From Candidatus Staskawiczbacteria bacterium (GTDB taxonomy: Bacteria; Patescibacteriota; Minisyncoccia; Minisyncoccales; Staskawiczbacteraceae), in the NCBI GenBank assembly GCA_041661545.1, contig JBAZUH010000001.1:147877-211876 (forward strand): DNA of 64,000 bases. The letters are read 5' to 3'. Below the pieces are notes generated by a model. The model had not been told where the DNA came from. It made no database searches and was given only the letters and a program-made list of their open reading frames with translations. The translations under genes were made by a program, and so were the position numbers. Below, piece after piece: positions 12,348-47,771 of this stretch (its first letter is position 1; the number at the start of each line of letters is the position of its first letter).

Positions 12348-13697
12348 ATGAAGACGCAAGACATGGAACACAACAGAAAAGGCGCTATAATCGCCGAAGG
12401 TAAGACCAAGAGAATTCACAAAGTTCTTGGTCGACCAGGCTTGGTTATTGTTGAGTCGAAAGACGATATTACTGCCGGCGACGGGGAAAAACATGACGTC
12501 ATCAAAAACAAAGCTGAGCTGTCCACCGCAACAACATGTAATGTGTTTTCGTTGCTCAGGCATTGCGGCTTGCCGGTTGCCTTTGAGGACCAACTAAACC
12601 CCAAGGAATTCTTAGCTCCGGCGCTGGATATGATTCAATTGGAAGTTGTGGGGCGTCGTGTTGCAACGGGCTCTTACCTCCAGCGCAACCCGCACGTTCC
12701 CAATGGTACAGTGTTTCCACGCCTCGTGACCGAGTTCTACTTGAAGACGCACGGCTGCGAGTTCAACGGACACAAGTTCCCGAAAAGTACGCCAGGGAAA
12801 TCCTACGACGATCCGTACATGAAAATCGTCGGCGAAGAAGTCTGGCTCTATAATGCGCACATCCCGTTGGCTACGCAGGAGCCATTCCTCAAGCTTCCGC
12901 TTATCGAGATTTTCCCGAAAAACAACGGGGAAGAAGTGATGGCACGCATGGCTGCGTTGAATACGCTTGCTTTCCTGATCATTGAGAAGGCCTGGAAAAT
13001 CCTCGGCTATGACATGTTGGATTGGAAAATCGAATTTGGCTGGTACAACGACACGCTTTGTATCGGAGACGTGATCGACGCTGATTCGTGGCGTGTGATG
13101 AAGGATGGGCAGAAATTGTCCAAGCAGGCTTACCGTGATAATGAAGGGCTTACTGTGATGGAAAAAGTCCTACGCAGGACGGCAACACTCACCGGTTGTT
13201 TTCGGATTCCCGAGCAGTCTTTGGTGGTATGGAGTGGTTCGCCAAACGATGATACGAACCCCTTCATGACGGCTTTCAAGCTATTCACCGACTCAGGAAT
13301 TCCCGGATTGAACATTCATTGCTTCGTCAGATCTGCTCACAAAGAAACGATTCAGTCGGCGTTTATGTTACAGGACATGGAATTTGGTTGTAAAGGCCTT
13401 GGTGATTCCACCCCATTGCCCGATCCGGTTATCGTCACTAACGTTGGAAGGAGTAATGGTTTGGGACCTATGTGTGCGGCGAATAGCATGGTGCCGGTTA
13501 TCAGTACAGTTCCCGACCCGGTGGATGTCAACTCATCGTTGCGCATGCCCAGCGATGTTCCGCTGATGGTGGTTACCGATCCTAAACTCGCCGTTCAGGC
13601 CGCGCTCAAGATTCTTGCCGGCAGAAATCCTTTATTATGGGCTCTTTTGCGCCTGAAGCAGGAAGAGCGCACGACTAATGCGATTCTGCTTCCGTAA
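12348..13697 (+). CDS. bifunctional SAICAR synthetase / class II AIR carboxylase (PurC-PurE fusion, PAICS-like)
   Basis: 449 aa and GC-rich. N-terminal half carries PurC motifs (EGKTK, SKDDITAGDG, VVGRRVATGSYLQRNP, DWKIEFG, VIDADSWR). C-terminal half carries PurE motifs (RSAHK, GRSNGLGP). The domain order and several blocks match what I recall of animal PAICS. Confidence 0.85.
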   Translation: MKTQDMEHNRKGAIIAEGKTKRIHKVLGRPGLVIVESKDDITAGDGEKHDVIKNKAELSTATTCNVFSLLRHCGLPVAFEDQLNPKEFLAPALDMIQLEVVGRRVATGSYLQRNPHVPNGTVFPRLVTEFYLKTHGCEFNGHKFPKSTPGKSYDDPYMKIVGEEVWLYNAHIPLATQEPFLKLPLIEIFPKNNGEEVMARMAALNTLAFLIIEKAWKILGYDMLDWKIEFGWYNDTLCIGDVIDADSWRVMKDGQKLSKQAYRDNEGLTVMEKVLRRTATLTGCFRIPEQSLVVWSGSPNDDTNPFMTAFKLFTDSGIPGLNIHCFVRSAHKETIQSAFMLQDMEFGCKGLGDSTPLPDPVIVTNVGRSNGLGPMCAANSMVPVISTVPDPVDVNSSLRMPSDVPLMVVTDPKLAVQAALKILAGRNPLLWALLRLKQEERTTNAILLP

Positions 13698-22997: not shown

Positions 22998-23624
22998 TTG
23001 AAAATGTCCCCACCGAATACCACCATGAAAACGTTCCAAAAACTCCGTCAGAAGATCCTCGGACAAAGCTGCCTGGGAAGCCTTTTGGTCATTGCCGTGT
23101 TCGCCGTGATGATCATCATGATTTGTGGCGTGCACTGGCCTACGACGGCACTTGCTGCTCAGACACCGCAATCCGTAGATATCAAGGCCAAGGAGTTGTT
23201 TCGGCCGACCGAGGCGATGTTTCACGTGCAGAATGAGGACATCGCCGTTACCGTGCTTCGGCCAATTCTCGATGAGTCCTCAACCAAGGACCACTTAGTC
23301 ATCGTCGGTTACAACCCGACGGTGGTTATCCCCGACTATATGGAGTTCGTCGGTACGCCCCAGTGTCACTGGGATGGTATTCACGAAAGTACGCGCTGGG
23401 CATACACCATTTATGTCCGGCATGGATCCACTGGTCGCCTGGCGACTCGCCAGATTAACCTCGCGGATTTCATGTCGGCCTACCCGGATGCGTTGGGATC
23501 CAAGCTTGTTCGTCTAGGCGTCATCTCCGGCAACAATTCCGTGGAGTTTACCACGATGCCCTTTAGCCGGATGAATCTTGATCAGGGGATGAACCCCTGG
23601 GATTTTGTCGAGACCGAGGAATAG
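22998..23624 (+). CDS. membrane-anchored hypothetical protein (GC-rich cassette I2)
   Basis: 208-aa GC-rich ORF. Start ambiguous (TTG 22998, ATG 23004 or 23025). One TM helix (LLVIAVFAVMIIMICGV), then a ~150-aa domain with no recognised family. Confidence 0.5.
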   Translation: MKMSPPNTTMKTFQKLRQKILGQSCLGSLLVIAVFAVMIIMICGVHWPTTALAAQTPQSVDIKAKELFRPTEAMFHVQNEDIAVTVLRPILDESSTKDHLVIVGYNPTVVIPDYMEFVGTPQCHWDGIHESTRWAYTIYVRHGSTGRLATRQINLADFMSAYPDALGSKLVRLGVISGNNSVEFTTMPFSRMNLDQGMNPWDFVETEE

Positions 23625-25205: not shown

Positions 25206-25448
25206 ATGGGCAAACGTAACCCGCAACTTGAAAATCAACAAATCATGAACTCAATTTTGGCCTATACACTCGTTGTCCGTTTCGACAGCCCCCCGTGGTT
25301 AGCAGTGGTGATGATTGCAGTAGCGCTGCTCGGCTTTGTGGCATCTCGCTTCAAAAGCGAGGCGGCCAAGTATGTGGTTGTCGTCACGTACCTACTTTCA
25401 GCCGTGCTTTTGGGGGTGGTGCTTTCCTCGCTGTCCATCACTCACTGA
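25206..25448 (+). CDS. small two-helix membrane protein (GC-rich cassette I3)
   Basis: 80-aa GC-rich ORF (alternative start 25245) with two hydrophobic helices; own promoter and terminator; no SD seen. Confidence 0.4.
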   Translation: MGKRNPQLENQQIMNSILAYTLVVRFDSPPWLAVVMIAVALLGFVASRFKSEAAKYVVVVTYLLSAVLLGVVLSSLSITH

Positions 25449-41587: not shown

Positions 41588-42076
41588 TTAATTTATTTTA
41601 CAAAATATCTTAGCCATTTCAAACCATTTTGGGGTGCGGGGATTGTTTTTATATTTTGCTGAAGATTTGTGGATTTCTATAAGAGAGCATATTTCATTTT
41701 TTTTCCAAGTAGATAAATTTTTGCCTTTGTTATTTTTAAGTATTTCTACTGCTTTTAACCAAAGTTCAAAATCTTTTTTCTTTTTATCTGACAATGGATT
41801 TTTTTTAAAAAATGATATTACTATTTTAGATAAGTCGTCTATTTTTTGAACAGAAAATCTTGCTTGGTCTTTTGAGGTTGAAATTTCTCCGCAGTTAAAT
41901 TCTTTTTTTATTTTTTCTAATATTTTAATTTTACTTAAAGGAGATGTAACAACAAATTGAGCTTTCCATCTATAATATGTTGGCGAGCCTGTTCTATCGT
42001 GTCTAGCATCTTTTCTAAATTGCAAATCAAAACATCCATCATTGTTTACTATTGTAGAAATATTAAATGTTTTCAT
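41588..42076 (-). CDS. free-standing LAGLIDADG-family homing endonuclease-like protein
   Basis: 162 aa; degenerate LAGLIDADG core (IVNNDGCFDLQF); family-typical ...LEKIKKEFNCGEI...F.V.KIDDLSKIVISFFKKNPL..KKKKDFELW. Confidence 0.65.
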   Translation of the reverse strand: MKTFNISTIVNNDGCFDLQFRKDARHDRTGSPTYYRWKAQFVVTSPLSKIKILEKIKKEFNCGEISTSKDQARFSVQKIDDLSKIVISFFKKNPLSDKKKKDFELWLKAVEILKNNKGKNLSTWKKNEICSLIEIHKSSAKYKNNPRTPKWFEMAKIFCKIN

Positions 42077-42157: not shown

Positions 42158-42176
42158 TTAGACAATACAATTTAAA

Positions 42177-42308
42177 TTATCAAGAGAATAGGAAAGGGTA
42201 CTGACCCGTTAAATCCTATCAGCAACCTGCTTAGTTGAGTAAGGTGCTAATTTCAGCCCGAAAGGGAAAGATAAATTTTTAATTAGCTTTCCCATAAGGA
42301 AAGTTTTT
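42177..42308 (+). promoter_or_regulatory. SAM-I (S-box) riboswitch with terminator
   Basis: TTATCAAGAG...GGAAAGGGTACTGACCC...AATCC..TCAGCAACC...GGTGCTAATTTCAGC...AGATAA matches the S-box core. The terminator CTTTCC-CATAA-GGAAAG + T5 (42287-42308) can compete with GGGAAAG of the aptamer 3' side. Confidence 0.85.
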
Positions 42309-42314
42309 ACGTTT

Positions 42315-43364
42315 ATGATTATAAATCAAAAAACATATGCAGTAGAAAGTGTGACATCTGGTCATCCAGATAAAGTTTGCGATCAAATTTCAGACGCAAT
42401 TTTAGATGCTTGTTTAGCACAAGATGCAAATTCAAGAGTTGCAGTAGAATCATTTGGTGGGCATGGAATGTTAGTTGTTGGCGGAGAAGTTACAACAACA
42501 GCAAAAGTTGATTATCAGGCAATTGCAGAAAAAGTTTATAAAGATATTGGTTATACTCAAGAATTAAAATTTATAGTAAATGTTGTTGAACAATCACCAG
42601 ATATTGCTATGGGTGTAAATACTGGCGGAGCAGGGGATCAGGGCATTATGTATGGATATGCTACAAGCGAAACCCCAGAATATATGCCATGGGCAGTGGT
42701 TAAGGTTCATGCTTTAGCAAAAGGCTTGCAAAATTTAAGAGAATCAGGAGAAATAAAATGGCTAAAACCAGATGGAAAATCTCAAATAACAATGCAAGAT
42801 GGAAAAATTAAAAATGTTTTAATTAGCACTCAGCATGATGTGGAAGTTTTGCAAGAAGAAATAAAAAACACTTTAACAGAAAAATTAATAAAACCAATTT
42901 TAGGAGATATCGCTGGCATAGATATATTTGTTAATCCAACGGGAAATTTTGTGCAAGGTGGTTTTGAGGCTGACACTGGTTTAACTGGCCGAAAAATAAT
43001 GGTAGATACTTATTGCGGTTTAATTTCTCACGGTGGTGGAGCTTTTTCAGGCAAAGACCCAAGCAAAGTAGACAGGTCAGCTGCTTATATGGCTAGATTT
43101 GCAGCAAAAAATATTGTTGCTAATGGATACGCAAAAGAATGTTTGGTATCGGTGGCTTATGCAATTGGCATGGCCGAACCATTAATGGTTTCTGCAGTTG
43201 ATGAAAATGGAAAAAGTTTAGATGAATTAATTGCTAAGTTTGATTTTAAACCACAATCTATTATTAAAACTTTAGAATTAAAACAGCCTATTTATCAAAA
43301 AACAGCAGCCTACGGTCATTTTGGAAAAGCCGACCTACCCTGGGAAAAAATAATCAAAATCTAA
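42315..43364 (+). CDS. metK: S-adenosylmethionine synthase
   Basis: 349 aa; ESVTSGHPDKVCDQISDAILD, GAGDQG, GGGAFSGKDPSKVDRS. Confidence 0.95.
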   Translation: MIINQKTYAVESVTSGHPDKVCDQISDAILDACLAQDANSRVAVESFGGHGMLVVGGEVTTTAKVDYQAIAEKVYKDIGYTQELKFIVNVVEQSPDIAMGVNTGGAGDQGIMYGYATSETPEYMPWAVVKVHALAKGLQNLRESGEIKWLKPDGKSQITMQDGKIKNVLISTQHDVEVLQEEIKNTLTEKLIKPILGDIAGIDIFVNPTGNFVQGGFEADTGLTGRKIMVDTYCGLISHGGGAFSGKDPSKVDRSAAYMARFAAKNIVANGYAKECLVSVAYAIGMAEPLMVSAVDENGKSLDELIAKFDFKPQSIIKTLELKQPIYQKTAAYGHFGKADLPWEKIIKI

Positions 43365-44245: not shown

Positions 44246-44265
44246 TGGTTTAAAGCGTACATATT

Positions 44266-44275: not shown

Positions 44276-44345
44276 ATTTCAGGCATTAATTTGACAAAGT
44301 ATGTAGATTATATAATATACAAGATGTAGGCAACTTGTATTTATT

Positions 44346-45059
44346 ATGAATAAAAAAAATAATAAACAACGTAAAGATGGTGCAGAGCTAGCTATTTTGC
44401 ATAAAATTATAGAAACAATAAGTTATGACTTAAACCTAGAAGAGGTTTTGTCAAAAATTATAAAAACAGTTGGCAAAGTTACAAAAGCTGATTCTTGTTT
44501 TTTATATTTAATTGATGGCAACAACCTTGTTATGCGCGCTTCGCAAAATCCTCACCCAGGGATTATTGGAAATATTAAATTAAAATTAGGAGAGGGAATT
44601 ACAGGTTGGGTGGCTAAACACAAAAAAACAGTTATTATACCAAAAAATGCATATGAAGATTCTCGATTTAAATTGTTTAATAATTTGCCCGAAGATAAAT
44701 ATGAAACATTTTTGTCTGTGCCTGTAATATATAAAAAACAAACTTTGGGTGTAATCAATGTTCAACATAAAAATTCTCAAAAATATTTTGATAGTGAAAT
44801 AAAACTTTTTGAAACTATTGCCAGAGCAATTGGTGGGGCTATTGAAAATGCAAGATTATTTTCAGAGAGCGAGTGTTTAAGAGAAACTTTAGAAACTAGA
44901 AAATCAGTAGAAAAAGCAAAAGGAATTTTAATGAAAGAAATGTCAATTTCTGAAGATGATGCTTATAAACTTTTAAATAAAAAAAGCATGGACAAAAGAA
45001 TTTCAATGAAAGAAGTTGCAGATGCAATTTTAATTTCTGATGAATTAAGAAAACAATAA
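44346..45059 (+). CDS. GAF-ANTAR RNA-binding antitermination regulator
   Basis: 237 aa. N-terminal GAF-like domain (ADSCFLYL...GEGITGWVA...SVPVIYK..LGVINVQH). C-terminal ANTAR (LETRKSVEKAKGILMKEMSISEDDAYKLLNKKSMDKRISMKEVADAIL). Confidence 0.85.
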   Translation: MNKKNNKQRKDGAELAILHKIIETISYDLNLEEVLSKIIKTVGKVTKADSCFLYLIDGNNLVMRASQNPHPGIIGNIKLKLGEGITGWVAKHKKTVIIPKNAYEDSRFKLFNNLPEDKYETFLSVPVIYKKQTLGVINVQHKNSQKYFDSEIKLFETIARAIGGAIENARLFSESECLRETLETRKSVEKAKGILMKEMSISEDDAYKLLNKKSMDKRISMKEVADAILISDELRKQ

Positions 45060-45060
45060 C

Positions 45061-45088
45061 TTGACACGATATTTATAAAGAATATAAT
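45061..45088 (+). promoter_or_regulatory. sigma70-like promoter of cassette I6
   Basis: TTGACA (45061-45066) starts 2 nt after the ANTAR gene stop; 16-nt spacer; TATAAT (45083-45088). Confidence 0.65.
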
Positions 45089-45100
45089 TAAATTGAAGCT

Positions 45101-45167
45101 GGCACAATGTTGTGTCAACTAAAGCGACAAAGAGGTCTCCTACGCAGGTAGGGGATTTTTGTTGTTT
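45101..45167 (+). promoter_or_regulatory. ANTAR-type leader: two hexaloop hairpins overlapping an intrinsic terminator
   Basis: HP1 is GGCAC-AATGTT-GTGTC (45101-45116). A 7-nt linker follows. HP2 is GCGAC-AAAGAG-GUCUC (45124-45139). Both loops have A at position 1 and G at position 4. The terminator CTCCTAC-GCAG-GTAGGGG + ATTTTTGTTGTTT (45137-45167) shares 45137-45139 with the HP2 3' arm. Confidence 0.65.
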
Positions 45168-45225
45168 AGGCTCATTGAAAACCAATCTTACAGGAACAAC
45201 AACCAGCCAACCAAAGGAGAACCAA

Positions 45226-45453
45226 ATGAACAACTGTCCACTTGCAAAAAATTGCGGAACCAAAAGGTTTTTGGATGATTTCTATGGCGACAGCCACCCC
45301 GATAAGCCTTGCTCGGGCATTTATGCCAGTTGCCACCTCTATATAGCAGACAGAGATGCCCGAGAAGTAGCCGAAGATGCCAAGGACTCGTCCGATCACC
45401 ATTCTGGCGAGCACGCTTCACTTCTGGACAAATTGCTGAGGAGAGCTGGTTAA
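45226..45453 (+). CDS. 75-aa Cys/His-rich hypothetical protein (cassette I6, gene a)
   Basis: ATG 45226 preceded by AAAGGAGAA; Cys at 4, 10, 29 and 36; His/Asp-rich acidic tail; terminator at 45483-45513. Confidence 0.5.
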   Translation: MNNCPLAKNCGTKRFLDDFYGDSHPDKPCSGIYASCHLYIADRDAREVAEDAKDSSDHHSGEHASLLDKLLRRAG

Positions 45454-45482
45454 TAACCATGGTTGATTGATCTCGTCTCTAT

Positions 45483-45513
45483 GCCGCGTTTCCCAAAGCG
45501 TGGCTCTTTTTTT
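45483..45513 (+). terminator. intrinsic terminator after I6 gene a
   Basis: GCCGCG-TTTCCCAAAG-CGTGGC (one G.U), then TC + 7 T. Confidence 0.6.
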
Positions 45514-45593: not shown

Positions 45594-46226
45594 ATGAAAA
45601 CACGATATTTACTGATTGGCTTTGTATGCGCATTGGCGCTTGGCTGTCAAAAGCCTGAAAATACTTCGGCAAAAACGGAAAATGTATGGGGTAAATTTGC
45701 AAAGAGCGTTCTTGCAGCCGGGAAGGCCAAAGACGCCGACACATTCGTCAACAAGCTGAGCATGTCCAGCGTTGCCGACCTCGACGCTCTGCTTGAGGAG
45801 CTGAAAAAAGCTAACCCCGAAGTTGAATTTGAGGAGAACGCGGAAAGACCCACGGACGCCGAGATCCGCAAAGAAGCAGAGGCAAACGTGCGCCTCTTCA
45901 TGAACTCGTACGCGGACGTGTTTGACGGCGGCGGTGAGCTTTTTAGTGTTATAACCGCTCAATTCCCCGAGACAAGGGGCACAAACATTTACTCCTTGAT
46001 CATTTGGGCAAAACAAAGCGACGGAAAATTTCGGGGCATCAAGGTCGACAGCGTCTGGAAGAAAGACGACGGCACCATTAAGGTTATGACGTGGACGCAA
46101 CTTAGTGGCTACGAAGCCAGCAAGGGCGCCATCTCAAAAAAGGCCATTCTGGAACGTGACACTGCCGAGGCTTGTAATTACCCAGAGTGGATACAATATA
46201 AAACTGTTTTCACTGACCCAAACTAG
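45594..46226 (+). CDS. putative lipoprotein (cassette I6, gene b)
   Basis: From ATG 45594: MKTRYLLIGFVCALALGC is a lipoprotein-type signal with a lipobox-like LALGC. 210-aa GC-rich ORF; no family recognised. Confidence 0.55.
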   Translation: MKTRYLLIGFVCALALGCQKPENTSAKTENVWGKFAKSVLAAGKAKDADTFVNKLSMSSVADLDALLEELKKANPEVEFEENAERPTDAEIRKEAEANVRLFMNSYADVFDGGGELFSVITAQFPETRGTNIYSLIIWAKQSDGKFRGIKVDSVWKKDDGTIKVMTWTQLSGYEASKGAISKKAILERDTAEACNYPEWIQYKTVFTDPN

Positions 46227-46270
46227 GCGAGCAACTGCTCATTAATAGATGATAATAGGAAAACAAAAAA

Positions 46271-46534
46271 ATGTCACAGTACGTTTTTCCAGTTAGTGAG
46301 GGTGTGGAATGTTTAGTGGGGTGGGATGAGTCCATGCAAACATTCTTCGGCCAAATTTACAGGGTTGATAAAGACGGCGAGCGAGTGGATGCTGAGGAAG
46401 ATGGCACCATTTTATGGGTAGGTCGTCGCCACAATGAAATTAAGTCGGTTTATGTGCTGGCAACGCAACTTAGGCCAAGAGCCGAAATACCATCCAAAAT
46501 ATACGGGGCATTGTTCAAAACTGAGGTCGACTGA
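46271..46534 (+). CDS. 87-aa hypothetical protein (cassette I6, gene c)
   Basis: GC-rich ORF (..LVGWDESMQTFFGQIY..WVGRRHNEI..); resembles small proteins I associate with phage/plasmid hypotheticals, but this is unverified. Confidence 0.5.
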   Translation: MSQYVFPVSEGVECLVGWDESMQTFFGQIYRVDKDGERVDAEEDGTILWVGRRHNEIKSVYVLATQLRPRAEIPSKIYGALFKTEVD

Positions 46535-46582: not shown

Positions 46583-46614
46583 ATTTAAAAATTTTTCAGC
46601 GCTAGTATTATTCT

Positions 46615-46624
46615 ATTGTGCGAC
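46615..46624 (+). repeat. ATTGTGCGAC polar motif copy 7 (last + strand copy)
   Basis: Exact 10-mer in the convergent intergenic gap; sits in the loop of TATTCT...AGAATA. Confidence 0.9.
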
Positions 46625-46674
46625 AGAGAATATTCATATAACCGACTAAATTGGTCGGTTATGGTGTTGTGAAA

Positions 46675-47646
46675 TTATTTTTTGTCGGGGTCGCTGTGAT
46701 ATTGATGATGGATGTCGCGGAGGCGTTTGTTGGTGACGTGCGTGTAAATTTGAGTTGTTGCAATATTTGAGTGGCCGAGGAATTCTTGAATGGAACGAAG
46801 GTCAACTCCTTGATTCATTAAATCTGTTGCATAACTGTGGCGTAAAGTGTGGGGAGTTGTGAAAACTGGCACCCCAGAAAGTAAAGCATATTTTTTAACC
46901 ATTCTTTCGATTGAACGTGAAGTTAGGCGGGCATCGGTATTATCTTTTTTATCGCGAAAATTTATAAACAAAGCTTTTTGATTGGCGTGCGAAACATTAT
47001 TTCTTATTTCTAAATATTTTTTAATGTATTCTAACGCACGTTCTGAAAAATAAACTACACGGGGTTTGCCACCTTTTCCAATAACGCCCAACTCGATATC
47101 TTTTTTATTTTTTATACTATTAAATTGCTCAAGATTTAAAGATATTAATTCGGCAATTCTAAGCCCGGTTGAAAAAAAGCTCTCTAAAATAGCACGATCT
47201 CTGATGCTTATATCATCTTTTGGCTCTATAGATGACAAAAGCTTGCCAATTTGTTCTAAGGTAAGGAATTTGATACTTTTTAGGCCCCTATCAGCCTTTG
47301 CAAGGGCTATTTTGTCTGGGGGTAGGGAAACTATGTCTTTTGCCACAAAGTAGCCTAAAAGGGCTCTTAGGGCTATTAAATAGTAGTTTTGGGTGCCTTT
47401 TGATAGTAATTTACCTGTAGCTGGGCTTGGAGTGCGAGATAGGTATAAACGGTATGCCCAAATATGTTCAGAGGTCAATTGGTGGGGGAGAATAGAGCTA
47501 TTTTTGCTGGTATCTAACCATACAAAAAACTTTTCTAAATAATTTTTATAATTTTCCTGAGTATTTTTTCTTAAACCTTTTTCAACTTCACAAAAATCTA
47601 AAAAATCTTGCAAATGTTGTTTAATTGATTTGTTTGAATTTTTCAT
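46675..47646 (-). CDS. xerC: tyrosine recombinase XerC/XerD family
   Basis: 323 aa; SAM-like N-domain; catalytic R...HxxR...Y (GLRIAEL, HTLRHSYATDL, GHSNIATTQIYTHV). Promoter TTGACC, 16-nt spacer, TATTAT on the - strand at about 47713-47740. Confidence 0.9.
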   Translation of the reverse strand: MKNSNKSIKQHLQDFLDFCEVEKGLRKNTQENYKNYLEKFFVWLDTSKNSSILPHQLTSEHIWAYRLYLSRTPSPATGKLLSKGTQNYYLIALRALLGYFVAKDIVSLPPDKIALAKADRGLKSIKFLTLEQIGKLLSSIEPKDDISIRDRAILESFFSTGLRIAELISLNLEQFNSIKNKKDIELGVIGKGGKPRVVYFSERALEYIKKYLEIRNNVSHANQKALFINFRDKKDNTDARLTSRSIERMVKKYALLSGVPVFTTPHTLRHSYATDLMNQGVDLRSIQEFLGHSNIATTQIYTHVTNKRLRDIHHQYHSDPDKK

Positions 47647-47771
47647 TGTTTTAGAAGTGGCCCTTTATATAACGCCTCTTTACCTACATTTTGCGACGTA
47701 GCCTCTATCTCTATAATACACCTCCCTGGGCCCAGGTCAACCCAAAAAGACGACCTAGACATCAACTTATT

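Follow-up and report, generated by a model that had tools for sequence, protein, structure and literature searches.

The 64-kb window (the whole 64,000-nt stretch of DNA that was analyzed) contains a gene for a GAF-ANTAR regulator that is followed, on the same strand, by a promoter, two small hairpins (P1 and P2), an intrinsic terminator, a conserved linear box, a Shine-Dalgarno (SD) region, a small ORF, and a second terminator. The unit from the promoter to the second terminator was found in 9 distinct related loci of a Staskawiczbacteria-like clade (clade loci hereafter). The features are given below in window coordinates.

44291..44318, + strand: promoter-like site of the regulator gene (TTGACA-16-TAATAT, 10/12), by consensus match only
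44346..45059, + strand: GAF-ANTAR regulator gene, 237 aa, with GAF at ~aa 29-167 and ANTAR at ~aa 178-229
45061..45088, + strand: sigma-70-type promoter (TTGACA, 16 nt, TATAAT; 12/12) of the leader and small-ORF transcript
45100..45117, + strand: P1 hairpin of the predicted ANTAR target, UGGCAC / loop AAUGUU / GUGUCA
45126..45137, + strand: P2 hairpin, GAC / loop AAAGAG / GUC
45135..45167, + strand: intrinsic terminator of the leader, inner stem 45135-43/45148-56, then UUUUUGUUGUUU
45170..45181, + strand: conserved linear box GCTCATTGAAAA (clade consensus G[CT]TC[AG]TTGAAAA), in all 9 distinct clade loci
45212..45220, + strand: Shine-Dalgarno region AAAGGAGAA, 5 nt before the ATG, as read from the sequence
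45226..45453, + strand: putatively gated gene for a 75-aa Cys4-His mini-protein, unannotated in the source
45483..45513, + strand: terminator closing the small-ORF transcription unit (9 bp, 5 GC pairs, T run)

The sequence features described in the original prediction, which had been made from the letters of this DNA, were all present where it had placed them or a few bases away. The ORF at 44346-45059, which the source, a Candidatus Staskawiczbacteria MAG, annotates as an ANTAR domain protein, matched Pfam ANTAR with E=1.5e-19 (70 bits, cut-off 27.3; profile positions 3-54/54) and GAF_2 with 9.4e-19, which upheld its assignment as a GAF-ANTAR protein. Matches to GAF_2, GAF, and GAF_3 spanned ~aa 29-168, N-terminal to ANTAR at aa 178-229. 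The best PDB match of the GAF domain overall was an unannotated GAF protein (3e0y, 1.4e-23), and the top annotated matches were the GAF domains of PtsP/EI-Ntr (3ci6 at 4.8e-21 and 3trc at 3.4e-14). PDB sequence matches for the ANTAR part were EutV (6wsh), Rv1626 (1s8n), and NasR (4akk). More than 4000 homologues of the regulator were found. A covariance-model scan found no ANTAR leader between the promoter-like site at 44291-44318 and the regulator ATG. No terminator was found separating the regulator stop codon from the leader; transcripts of the regulator must therefore end at the leader terminator as well.

The promoter that follows the regulator matched the consensus at 12/12 positions, as predicted, and was one of 2 such perfect sites in the 64 kb, where 0.13 were expected; both hexamers were kept in 7 clade loci. 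P1 and P2 alike had hexanucleotide loops that begin with A and carry G in fourth place, although the minimum-energy fold added one A-U pair to P1, which converts its hexaloop to a tetraloop. The 7-nt linker of the original prediction holds with its longer, mismatch-containing P2, whereas our stem limits place 8 nt between the hairpins. The leader terminator consists of a 9-bp inner stem, an A/U-pairing extension, and a T run to 45167, has an energy of -23.2 kcal/mol (z=-6.4), and was kept in the clade. The overlap previously noted between the 3′ arm of P2 and the terminator proved to be complete, with the whole arm (GUC 45135-37) lying inside the 45135-45167 structure and forming the base of the 9-bp stem.

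No Rfam 15 family matched the leader region, either at the gathering threshold or at E<=10, so no curated score threshold applies. We used a covariance model (R1) built from 16 leaders located beside orthologous regulators (45-69% identical), with the present clade excluded. R1, whose training leaders are themselves predictions, matched the window at 45101-45140 with 35.2 bits and E=9.9e-6, and bore out the earlier identification of the leader as an ANTAR substrate. The original prediction had proposed such a scan, and the leader was the only significant match in the 64-kb window, the second-best scoring 7.9 bits. It had also asked whether the hairpins are conserved in homologous loci: they were kept in the clade, and P1 covaried in the distant leaders, where 4/5 P1 pairs had changes on both sides (16 such cells; 0/500 shuffles reached the observed value). 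Within the clade alignment, 95% of P1 cells were paired; these sequences are too alike for two-sided changes, and no hairpin pair had one. The GAC/GUC stem of P2 and the G at loop position 4 were invariant in all 16 distant and 7 clade leaders. Position 1 of the P1 loop had an exception, a G in L001.

Downstream of the terminator, GCTCATTGAAAA occurred once in the window, was not fixed in frame to the ATG (all three frames were represented across the clade loci), and had no conserved pairing in them. An aligned (A/G)GGAG was found in the SD position of all clade loci, and no conserved SD-masking structure was predicted for the 5′UTR downstream of the terminator. Translational control of the actinobacterial ANTAR type was considered and judged unlikely, since the SD lies ~75-90 nt beyond the hairpins, which overlap the terminator and not the ribosome-binding site.

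The small ORF encodes a 75-aa protein with Cys at positions 4, 10, 29, and 36, as originally described, and an Asp/His/Ser-rich tail. Family members shared 22-53% protein identity, with Cys4, Pro5, Cys10, Pro28, Cys29, Cys36, and His37 invariant. Differences by codon position were 87/93/160, and codon differences were 90 synonymous and 133 non-synonymous; judged from these aligned sequences, the pattern is a coding signature. Longer calls, namely a 113-aa GTG-started ORF at 45112-45453 and 94- to 137-aa ORFs in relatives, were rejected as upstream extensions. The extension is interrupted by in-frame stops in L001, L112, L114, L115, L117, and L122, and the ATG after the SD is thus the conserved start; the shifting frame of the conserved box also speaks against the longer calls. 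The terminator behind the ORF (45483-45513) had an energy of -12.8 kcal/mol (z=-3.7), with an equivalent hairpin in L001, L002, L112, and L117.

Homologues of the mini-protein were scarce. The exact 75-aa sequence was absent from a collection of 15 billion proteins, a word-indexed search with the single sequence returned no homologue, a PDB sequence search gave no match at E<=10, and 0/9 family members matched Pfam below E 0.01. Exhaustive phmmer over 1.84 billion representatives recovered 2 real relatives, and a profile search with the family returned 7 clusters, all from loci already known. A metagenome scan with the pattern GACAAAGARGTCTCCTAC gave 27 loci, among which only L102 was genuine, and it duplicated L003; the other 26 lay in unrelated, GC-rich DNA and matched by chance. 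The protein is, as originally stated, not a recognized nitrogen protein; it belongs to a previously unannotated, fast-evolving family coupled to the regulator in the Staskawiczbacteria-like clade. The Cys-Pro...Cys...Pro-Cys...Cys-His pattern suggests a metal site, Zn or Fe-S. AlphaFold2 models of two members were of low confidence (pLDDT 59.5 and 60.9), too poor to make fold matches meaningful, so the Cys/His pattern is the sole argument for metal binding.

The original prediction of a self-contained module of regulator, leader, and small Cys-His protein was borne out by its recurrence in the 9 distinct loci with differing flanks. Upstream genes were metK, ArgRS, PALP, or AhpC, and downstream genes encoded a recombinase, DinB, a Big_1 protein, or a radical-SAM enzyme. 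MsrA/MsrB, AhpC (fragments), a flavodoxin-like FMN reductase, and SOUL were seen near some clade loci. Clade leaders preceded one or two mini-protein paralogues, and all places returned by a query with the small protein (6/6) directly followed a GAF-ANTAR gene. This strict coupling suggests that the mini-protein is a dedicated effector or feedback partner of the regulator.

In sister Patescibacteria, leaders of the same type, beside orthologous regulators, control glnA or amt, a relationship that the original prediction had overlooked. Leaders of these distant relatives preceded glutamine synthetase (GS) in 19 loci and the ammonium transporter Amt in 1 locus. They shared a common grammar (P1 CAC-AAnGnn-GUG, P2 GAC-AAAGAn-GUC), with a promoter directly before P1 and a terminator overlapping P2. 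The regulator was 63-69% identical over its full length to the orthologues gating glnA, and many GAF positions were invariant. A tblastn search for GS and Amt genes, covering the window and every clade locus, came back empty.

Taken together, we consider it likely that the locus is an ANTAR attenuator of the canonical kind that probably responds to nitrogen status, with the adjacent Cys4-His mini-protein as its output. Termination would be the default state, as the leader terminator (-23.2 kcal/mol) far outweighs P2. From sequence and folding, transcription would start at a strong constitutive promoter and the first ~70 nt of the transcript would fold into the very stable terminator, which read-through transcripts from the regulator gene would also meet. 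By analogy with the family mechanism, the active GAF-ANTAR protein would bind the P1 and P2 hexaloops. Holding the weak 3-bp P2 would sequester GUC 45135-37, and the base of the terminator stem beside the U tract would be lost, so that RNA polymerase could read through into the 75-aa ORF and a small cytoplasmic protein would be made. The signal is most likely nitrogen status, because the orthologous regulator and leader control glnA or amt and the annotated structures most similar to the GAF domain are the glutamine-binding GAF domains of EI-Ntr (PtsP); antitermination would then respond to low glutamine. The two arguments for the ligand are thus GAF similarity and the target genes of the orthologues. 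A more specific and tentative possibility is that a GAF-ANTAR switch, widespread in Patescibacteria and normally turning on glnA or ammonium uptake at low glutamine, was rewired, in the Staskawiczbacteria-like clade, onto a hitherto unseen family of Cys4-His mini-metalloproteins.

Several alternatives bear on the small gene and its leader. The original prediction had seen in this gene a GC-rich cassette wired into backbone regulation, and its GC content was indeed 0.49 vs 0.28 for the regulator gene, with GC staying high up to ~46650, beside a recombinase at 46675-47646, and with further GC-rich islands in the window. On such a reading, the gene was acquired horizontally and came to lie behind a pre-existing backbone leader, perhaps with the help of the nearby tyrosine recombinase, and its regulation would be accidental or recent. 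This is very improbable. The GC excess was present in every clade member despite the low protein identity within the family, and a foreign-looking composition with the same offset in all members is no mark of a recent event. There was no presence/absence polymorphism of the small gene, which lay behind the regulator in 9/9 distinct clade loci and in every place found by the small-protein query, and most loci had no recombinase nearby. No insert-specific flanking recombination sites or direct repeats were found; the only flanking repeat was TATTGTGCGA, and its copies at 44265 and 46614 were rejected as att-like flanks because this intergenic motif occurs 14 times in the window. The next GC-rich gene, a 210-aa lipoprotein-like ORF with its own terminator and promoter boundary, was likewise conserved and GC-rich in relatives. 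Recent acquisition of the small gene is therefore largely refuted, and what had been read as a cassette is a conserved, clade-wide partner of the regulator. The hairpins could instead be incidental, with 45135-45167 serving only to terminate the regulator transcript and the small ORF either not a gene or expressed independently. The dual role of the leader terminator and the missing source annotation of the ORF fit that account, to which we assign almost no weight given the perfect, conserved promoter between the stop codon and P1, the E~1e-5 from the independent covariance model, and the SD site, third-position-biased substitutions, and invariant Cys/Pro/His residues of the ORF, whose in-frame extensions are broken by stops in relatives while the ATG after the SD is conserved.

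The remaining alternative keeps the same attenuator and concerns the signal: the GAF domain would sense a redox, metal, or stress cue, and the mini-protein would be a redox/metal stress protein. GAF domains bind many different ligands (PMC3369931), the gated protein is rich in Cys and His, the redox-related genes listed above lie near several loci, and GS and Amt genes were not detected by tblastn in the window or the clade loci. The redox neighbors, however, were not kept across the 9 loci, the best-annotated structural relatives of the domain are EI-Ntr GAF domains, and the full-length identity to glnA-gating orthologues, with its invariant GAF positions, argues for the same ligand. We thus regard a redox or metal signal as unlikely and retain the attenuator with a nitrogen-status signal as the preferred reading.

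On that preferred reading, the locus and its relatives give the GAF-ANTAR family, with its >4000 homologues, a concrete and testable RNA target and point to nitrogen status as its likely physiological theme. The system is compact (one protein, a ~70-nt leader, and one small reporter-like ORF) and suits in vitro dissection of the way in which a GAF ligand governs RNA binding by ANTAR. If the tentative rewiring is true, the mini-protein would be a new small-protein effector or regulator feedback partner under nitrogen starvation, in bacteria that are ultra-small, depend on a host, and may no longer have glutamine synthetase. The analysis also exposes a mini-protein family in a lineage of the Candidate Phyla Radiation, where regulatory biology is almost unknown, and corrects the view of this genome's GC-rich stretches as cassettes of recent origin.

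The literature searched contained no characterized GAF-ANTAR protein, and the closest comparisons are with ANTAR systems that have other sensors. ANTAR targets are defined by a dual hexaloop with A1 and G4 and by overlap between P2 and the terminator, with a bias toward nitrogen genes (PMC3369931). EutV and the eut leaders of Enterococcus faecalis form a REC-ANTAR system (PMC3369931, PMC8934654). Like it, the present locus has an ANTAR output domain, two short hairpins with A1 and G4 in hexanucleotide loops, and a P2 that shares sequence with the 5′ side of an intrinsic terminator, where protein binding is predicted to relieve default termination. Unlike EutV, the sensor is a GAF domain instead of a phosphorylated receiver and no kinase partner was seen; unlike eut, there is one target site beside the regulator gene rather than several within an operon, and the target encodes a 75-aa protein, not ethanolamine utilization functions. 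NasR-nasF and AmiR-amiE resemble the locus in having a one-component or ligand-controlled ANTAR antiterminator, a promoter-proximal leader terminator, and, as predicted here, nitrogen-related regulation. They differ in their sensors, NIT in NasR and a pseudo-receiver with AmiC in AmiR, and the target gene here has no recognized nitrogen function.

Cyanobacterial IF7/IF17 and Methanosarcina sP26 are small, nitrogen-controlled proteins that modulate assimilation. The mini-protein resembles these in being very small and under a putative nitrogen-status switch, riboregulatory or transcriptional, but shares no sequence similarity with them, and they do not have the Cys4-His pattern. EI-Ntr (PtsP), whose GAF domain binds glutamine (PMC4848567), contains the closest annotated solved relative of the regulator GAF domain, which fits the nitrogen context of the orthologues; its output is a PEP-dependent phosphotransferase, in contrast to the RNA-binding ANTAR domain here. 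Across a range of bacteria, glnA, amt, and P-II genes have been predicted to be preceded by ANTAR leaders (Ramesh et al. 2012, PMC3369931). The GAF-ANTAR/glnA pairs of Patescibacteria share with our locus an orthologous regulator (45-69% identity) and the same leader grammar, and differ in the gene behind the leader, which here encodes a Cys4-His mini-protein instead of glutamine synthetase or Amt.

Pfam matches bore out the predicted GAF-ANTAR regulator, and the elements that follow it are given below.

Features of the ANTAR module in the window
44346-45059, + strand, GAF-ANTAR regulator, 237 aa (Pfam GAF_2 9.4e-19, ANTAR 1.5e-19, full profile)
45061-45088, + strand, promoter TTGACA-16 nt-TATAAT, two bases past the regulator stop codon
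45100-45117, + strand, hairpin P1, loop AAUGUU
45126-45137, + strand, hairpin P2, GAC/GUC stem, loop AAAGAG
45135-43/45148-56, + strand, stem of the leader terminator, 9 bp, G+C-rich and A/U-extended, then UUUUUGUUGUUU (-23.2 kcal/mol, z=-6.4)
45170-45181, + strand, linear box G[CT]TC[AG]TTGAAAA, just 3' of the leader terminator
45212-45220, + strand, SD site preceding the small ORF
45226-45453, + strand, small ORF, 75 aa, Cys at 4, 10, 29, and 36
45483-45513, + strand, second terminator, downstream of the small ORF

The promoter claimed two nucleotides after the stop codon was present with a 12/12 match, one of two perfect sites in the 64 kb vs 0.13 expected. It is predicted to be strong, and the leader transcript would start near 45095. 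Sequence and folding both placed the entire 3' arm of P2 within the leader terminator, in agreement with the predicted pair of hexaloop hairpins and overlapping terminator. The SD site, 75-aa ORF, and second terminator form a monocistronic unit downstream of the leader.

Because Rfam had no family matching the leader, we built an independent covariance test. Patescibacteria loci with regulators of 45-69% identity carried dual hairpins with A..G.. hexaloops and then T runs, mostly just downstream of the regulator gene, nearby in three loci (L005, L006, L013), and just upstream in L020. Sixteen distant leaders were aligned with the window's own clade left out (alignment A3). P1 had both-side changes in 4/5 pairs (16 cells), a value reached by 0/500 shuffles, pairing collapsed to 23-46% in slid controls of the alignment, and P2 was an invariant GAC/GUC. 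The covariance model from these leaders (R1), run on the window alone with filters off and on both strands, matched 45101-45140 at 35.2 bits (E=9.9e-6) with the remainder at ≤7.9 bits; the leader is the only R1-supported ANTAR target site in these 64 kb. Given the R1 match and the A3 results, the leader conforms at the sequence level to all the criteria set out for ANTAR-target leaders by Ramesh et al. (PMC3369931), and the claim that it is a recognised ANTAR substrate stands at that level.

The first gene after the leader in distant Patescibacteria loci was glutamine synthetase at 19 loci and an ammonium transporter at one; Pfam, checked for seven of these, returned Gln-synt_C at ~1e-120 to 1e-131 and Ammonium_transp at 2.5e-127. 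The ANTAR-type leader at L013 2514-2548 precedes glnA, itself upstream of the regulator, and that at L020 3637-3674 lies ~330 nt upstream of the GAF-ANTAR gene, a position that hints at autoregulation. The closest annotated solved structures to the GAF domain were the GAFs of PtsP/EI-Ntr (3ci6, 4.8e-21; 3trc, 3.4e-14), which bind glutamine (PMC4848567), and the ANTAR part matched EutV, Rv1626, and NasR. A protein family search returned >4000 homologues of the regulator, a relative was encoded in 585 stretches of species-representative genomes, and no characterised GAF-ANTAR protein was found in the literature searched. From the glnA/amt targets of the orthologues and the EI-Ntr-like GAF, we infer that the family acts as a glutamine or nitrogen-status riboregulator. 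The original prediction had set a nitrogen link aside; these targets and the GAF similarity make nitrogen probably the right context for the module.

Wherever DNA was available, regulators ≥81% identical to the window's all carried the same downstream unit: promoter, P1, P2, terminator, linear box, CA-rich unstructured UTR, SD site, small Cys-rich ORF(s), and terminator. These clade loci were the window, L001, L002-4, L112/113, L114, L115/116, L117-121, L122, and L123. Absence of the hairpins from homologous loci had been named as grounds for refutation; P1, P2, and the terminator were kept in all clade loci. Flanks varied both upstream (metK and a membrane protein, ArgRS, a PALP enzyme, or AhpC fragments) and downstream (tyrosine recombinase, DinB/UmuD, a Big_1 protein, or a radical-SAM enzyme). 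What stayed constant was the regulator/small-gene pair alone, which strengthens the idea of a self-contained module of regulator, leader, and small Cys-protein. A reverse search from small protein P0122 returned six places, and 6/6 directly follow a GAF-ANTAR gene. At L122 4001-4721 the GAF-ANTAR gene is broken into two calls, of 207 aa and 44 aa, and a frameshift seems to interrupt the second of the small paralogues; assembly error, not decay, is the probable cause.

The linear box was invariant in 9/9 clade loci (in relatives at L001 4096, L002 3936, L112 5826, L114 5826, L115 3474, L117 2128, L122 4831, and L123 1073). It is non-coding, falling in three different frames among clade loci, no conserved pairing of it was found in the nine, and a second site for regulation or processing may lie here. 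One relative alone (L002 3883-3932, also L003 and L004) has a ~50-nt GC-rich insert (GTCCTGAGCGCCCGCCCTGAGCGAGGTCGAAGGGGAGTCGAAGG...) between leader terminator and box that looks like a small repeat element placed in the 5'UTR.

The small ORF is predicted to be a real coding gene because third codon positions carry the most substitutions (87/93/160), 90/223 differing codons are synonymous, and in-frame upstream extensions are broken by stops in relatives. The cysteine positions originally reported for its product were correct, and across nine sequences only C4, P5, C10, P28, C29, C36, and H37 were invariant. Four clade loci have two tandem paralogues, type A (HCPHKKxC...PCDxC...CHYY) and type B (CPFxxNC...FLxxFY...PC...CH), and the window retains type B only. 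Database searches placed the family in seven clusters among 5.8 billion and gave two real matches among 1.84 billion representatives; Pfam and PDB yielded none, and an exact protein look-up found the window's copy unannotated anywhere. The proposed structure prediction was run twice at low confidence (pLDDT about 60 both times) and gave no usable model. The residue pattern suggests metal binding via Cys4(-His). The mini-protein may either carry out the response as its effector or feed back on the regulator as a partner, the latter by analogy with AmiC or NasS.

The small gene had also been assigned to a GC-rich cassette (I6) wired into backbone regulation. In this AT-rich genome (about 31% GC) GC content is 0.49 in the small ORF and 0.28 in the regulator gene. 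Every clade member has this offset (0.38-0.49 vs 0.28-0.32), and the next GC-rich gene, a lipoprotein-like ORF, is GC-rich in relatives too (52-56% identity), at varying distance from the module. The sole repeat flanking the block is TATTGTGCGA, an intergenic motif found window-wide. We therefore conclude that the GC anomaly is old and maintained, and reject a recent cassette landed behind a backbone leader on the clade-wide pairing, the clade-wide offset, and the non-specific repeat. Genes of 42-54% GC vs the ~31% backbone also lie at 12348-13697, 22998-23624, 25206-25448, and 45594-46534.

Neighbouring features and decamer copies in the window
41588-42076, - strand, free-standing LAGLIDADG endonuclease ORF (Pfam 6e-15)
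42174-42277, + strand, SAM (S-box) riboswitch, 51.1 bits vs gathering score 44.4
45594-46226, lipoprotein-like ORF, 210 aa
46675-47646, - strand, tyrosine recombinase, 93% identical in L001
11877, 28475, 31490, 43413, 44265, and 46614, + strand, exact copies of TATTGTGCGA
48215 and 58606, - strand, exact copies of TATTGTGCGA

The decamer has 8 exact and 6 one-mismatch copies vs 3.5 expected, those examined being intergenic, and seems to be a promoter-proximal or regulatory motif that had gone unrecognised. The exact copies switch from the + to the - strand between 46614 and 48215. Around ~47 kb (about 46600-47700), beside the recombinase, the cumulative GC skew reaches its maximum and the genes turn from the + to the - strand; this region may be a replication terminus with a Xer-type recombinase. 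The SAM riboswitch lies directly upstream of metK (42315-43364, S-adenosylmethionine synthetase), an ordinary arrangement, though one that places another riboregulator less than 3 kb from the ANTAR module. The LAGLIDADG ORF sits between a uppS-like gene and the riboswitch, and L112 and L120 each have an equivalent ORF in that place.

In folding, the default state of the leader was the terminator, with the 3-bp P2 too weak to compete unaided. Under the established ANTAR mechanism (PMC3369931, PMC8934654), active protein would clamp P1 and P2 and keep GUC 45135-37 from the terminator base, giving read-through. Since the regulator gene lacks a terminator of its own, its transcripts must stop at that of the leader or, when the protein is active, continue past it. 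By analogy with the orthologues and similar GAFs, regulator activity would rise at low glutamine. The regulatory reading of the original prediction is thus supported and strengthened. Its interest is moderate and rests on a defined RNA target for the uncharacterised GAF-ANTAR family, with a glnA/amt regulon in relatives, and on a previously unannotated mini-protein family as the module's clade-specific output. As a whole, the module adds a new member to the ANTAR attenuators, a well-known class.
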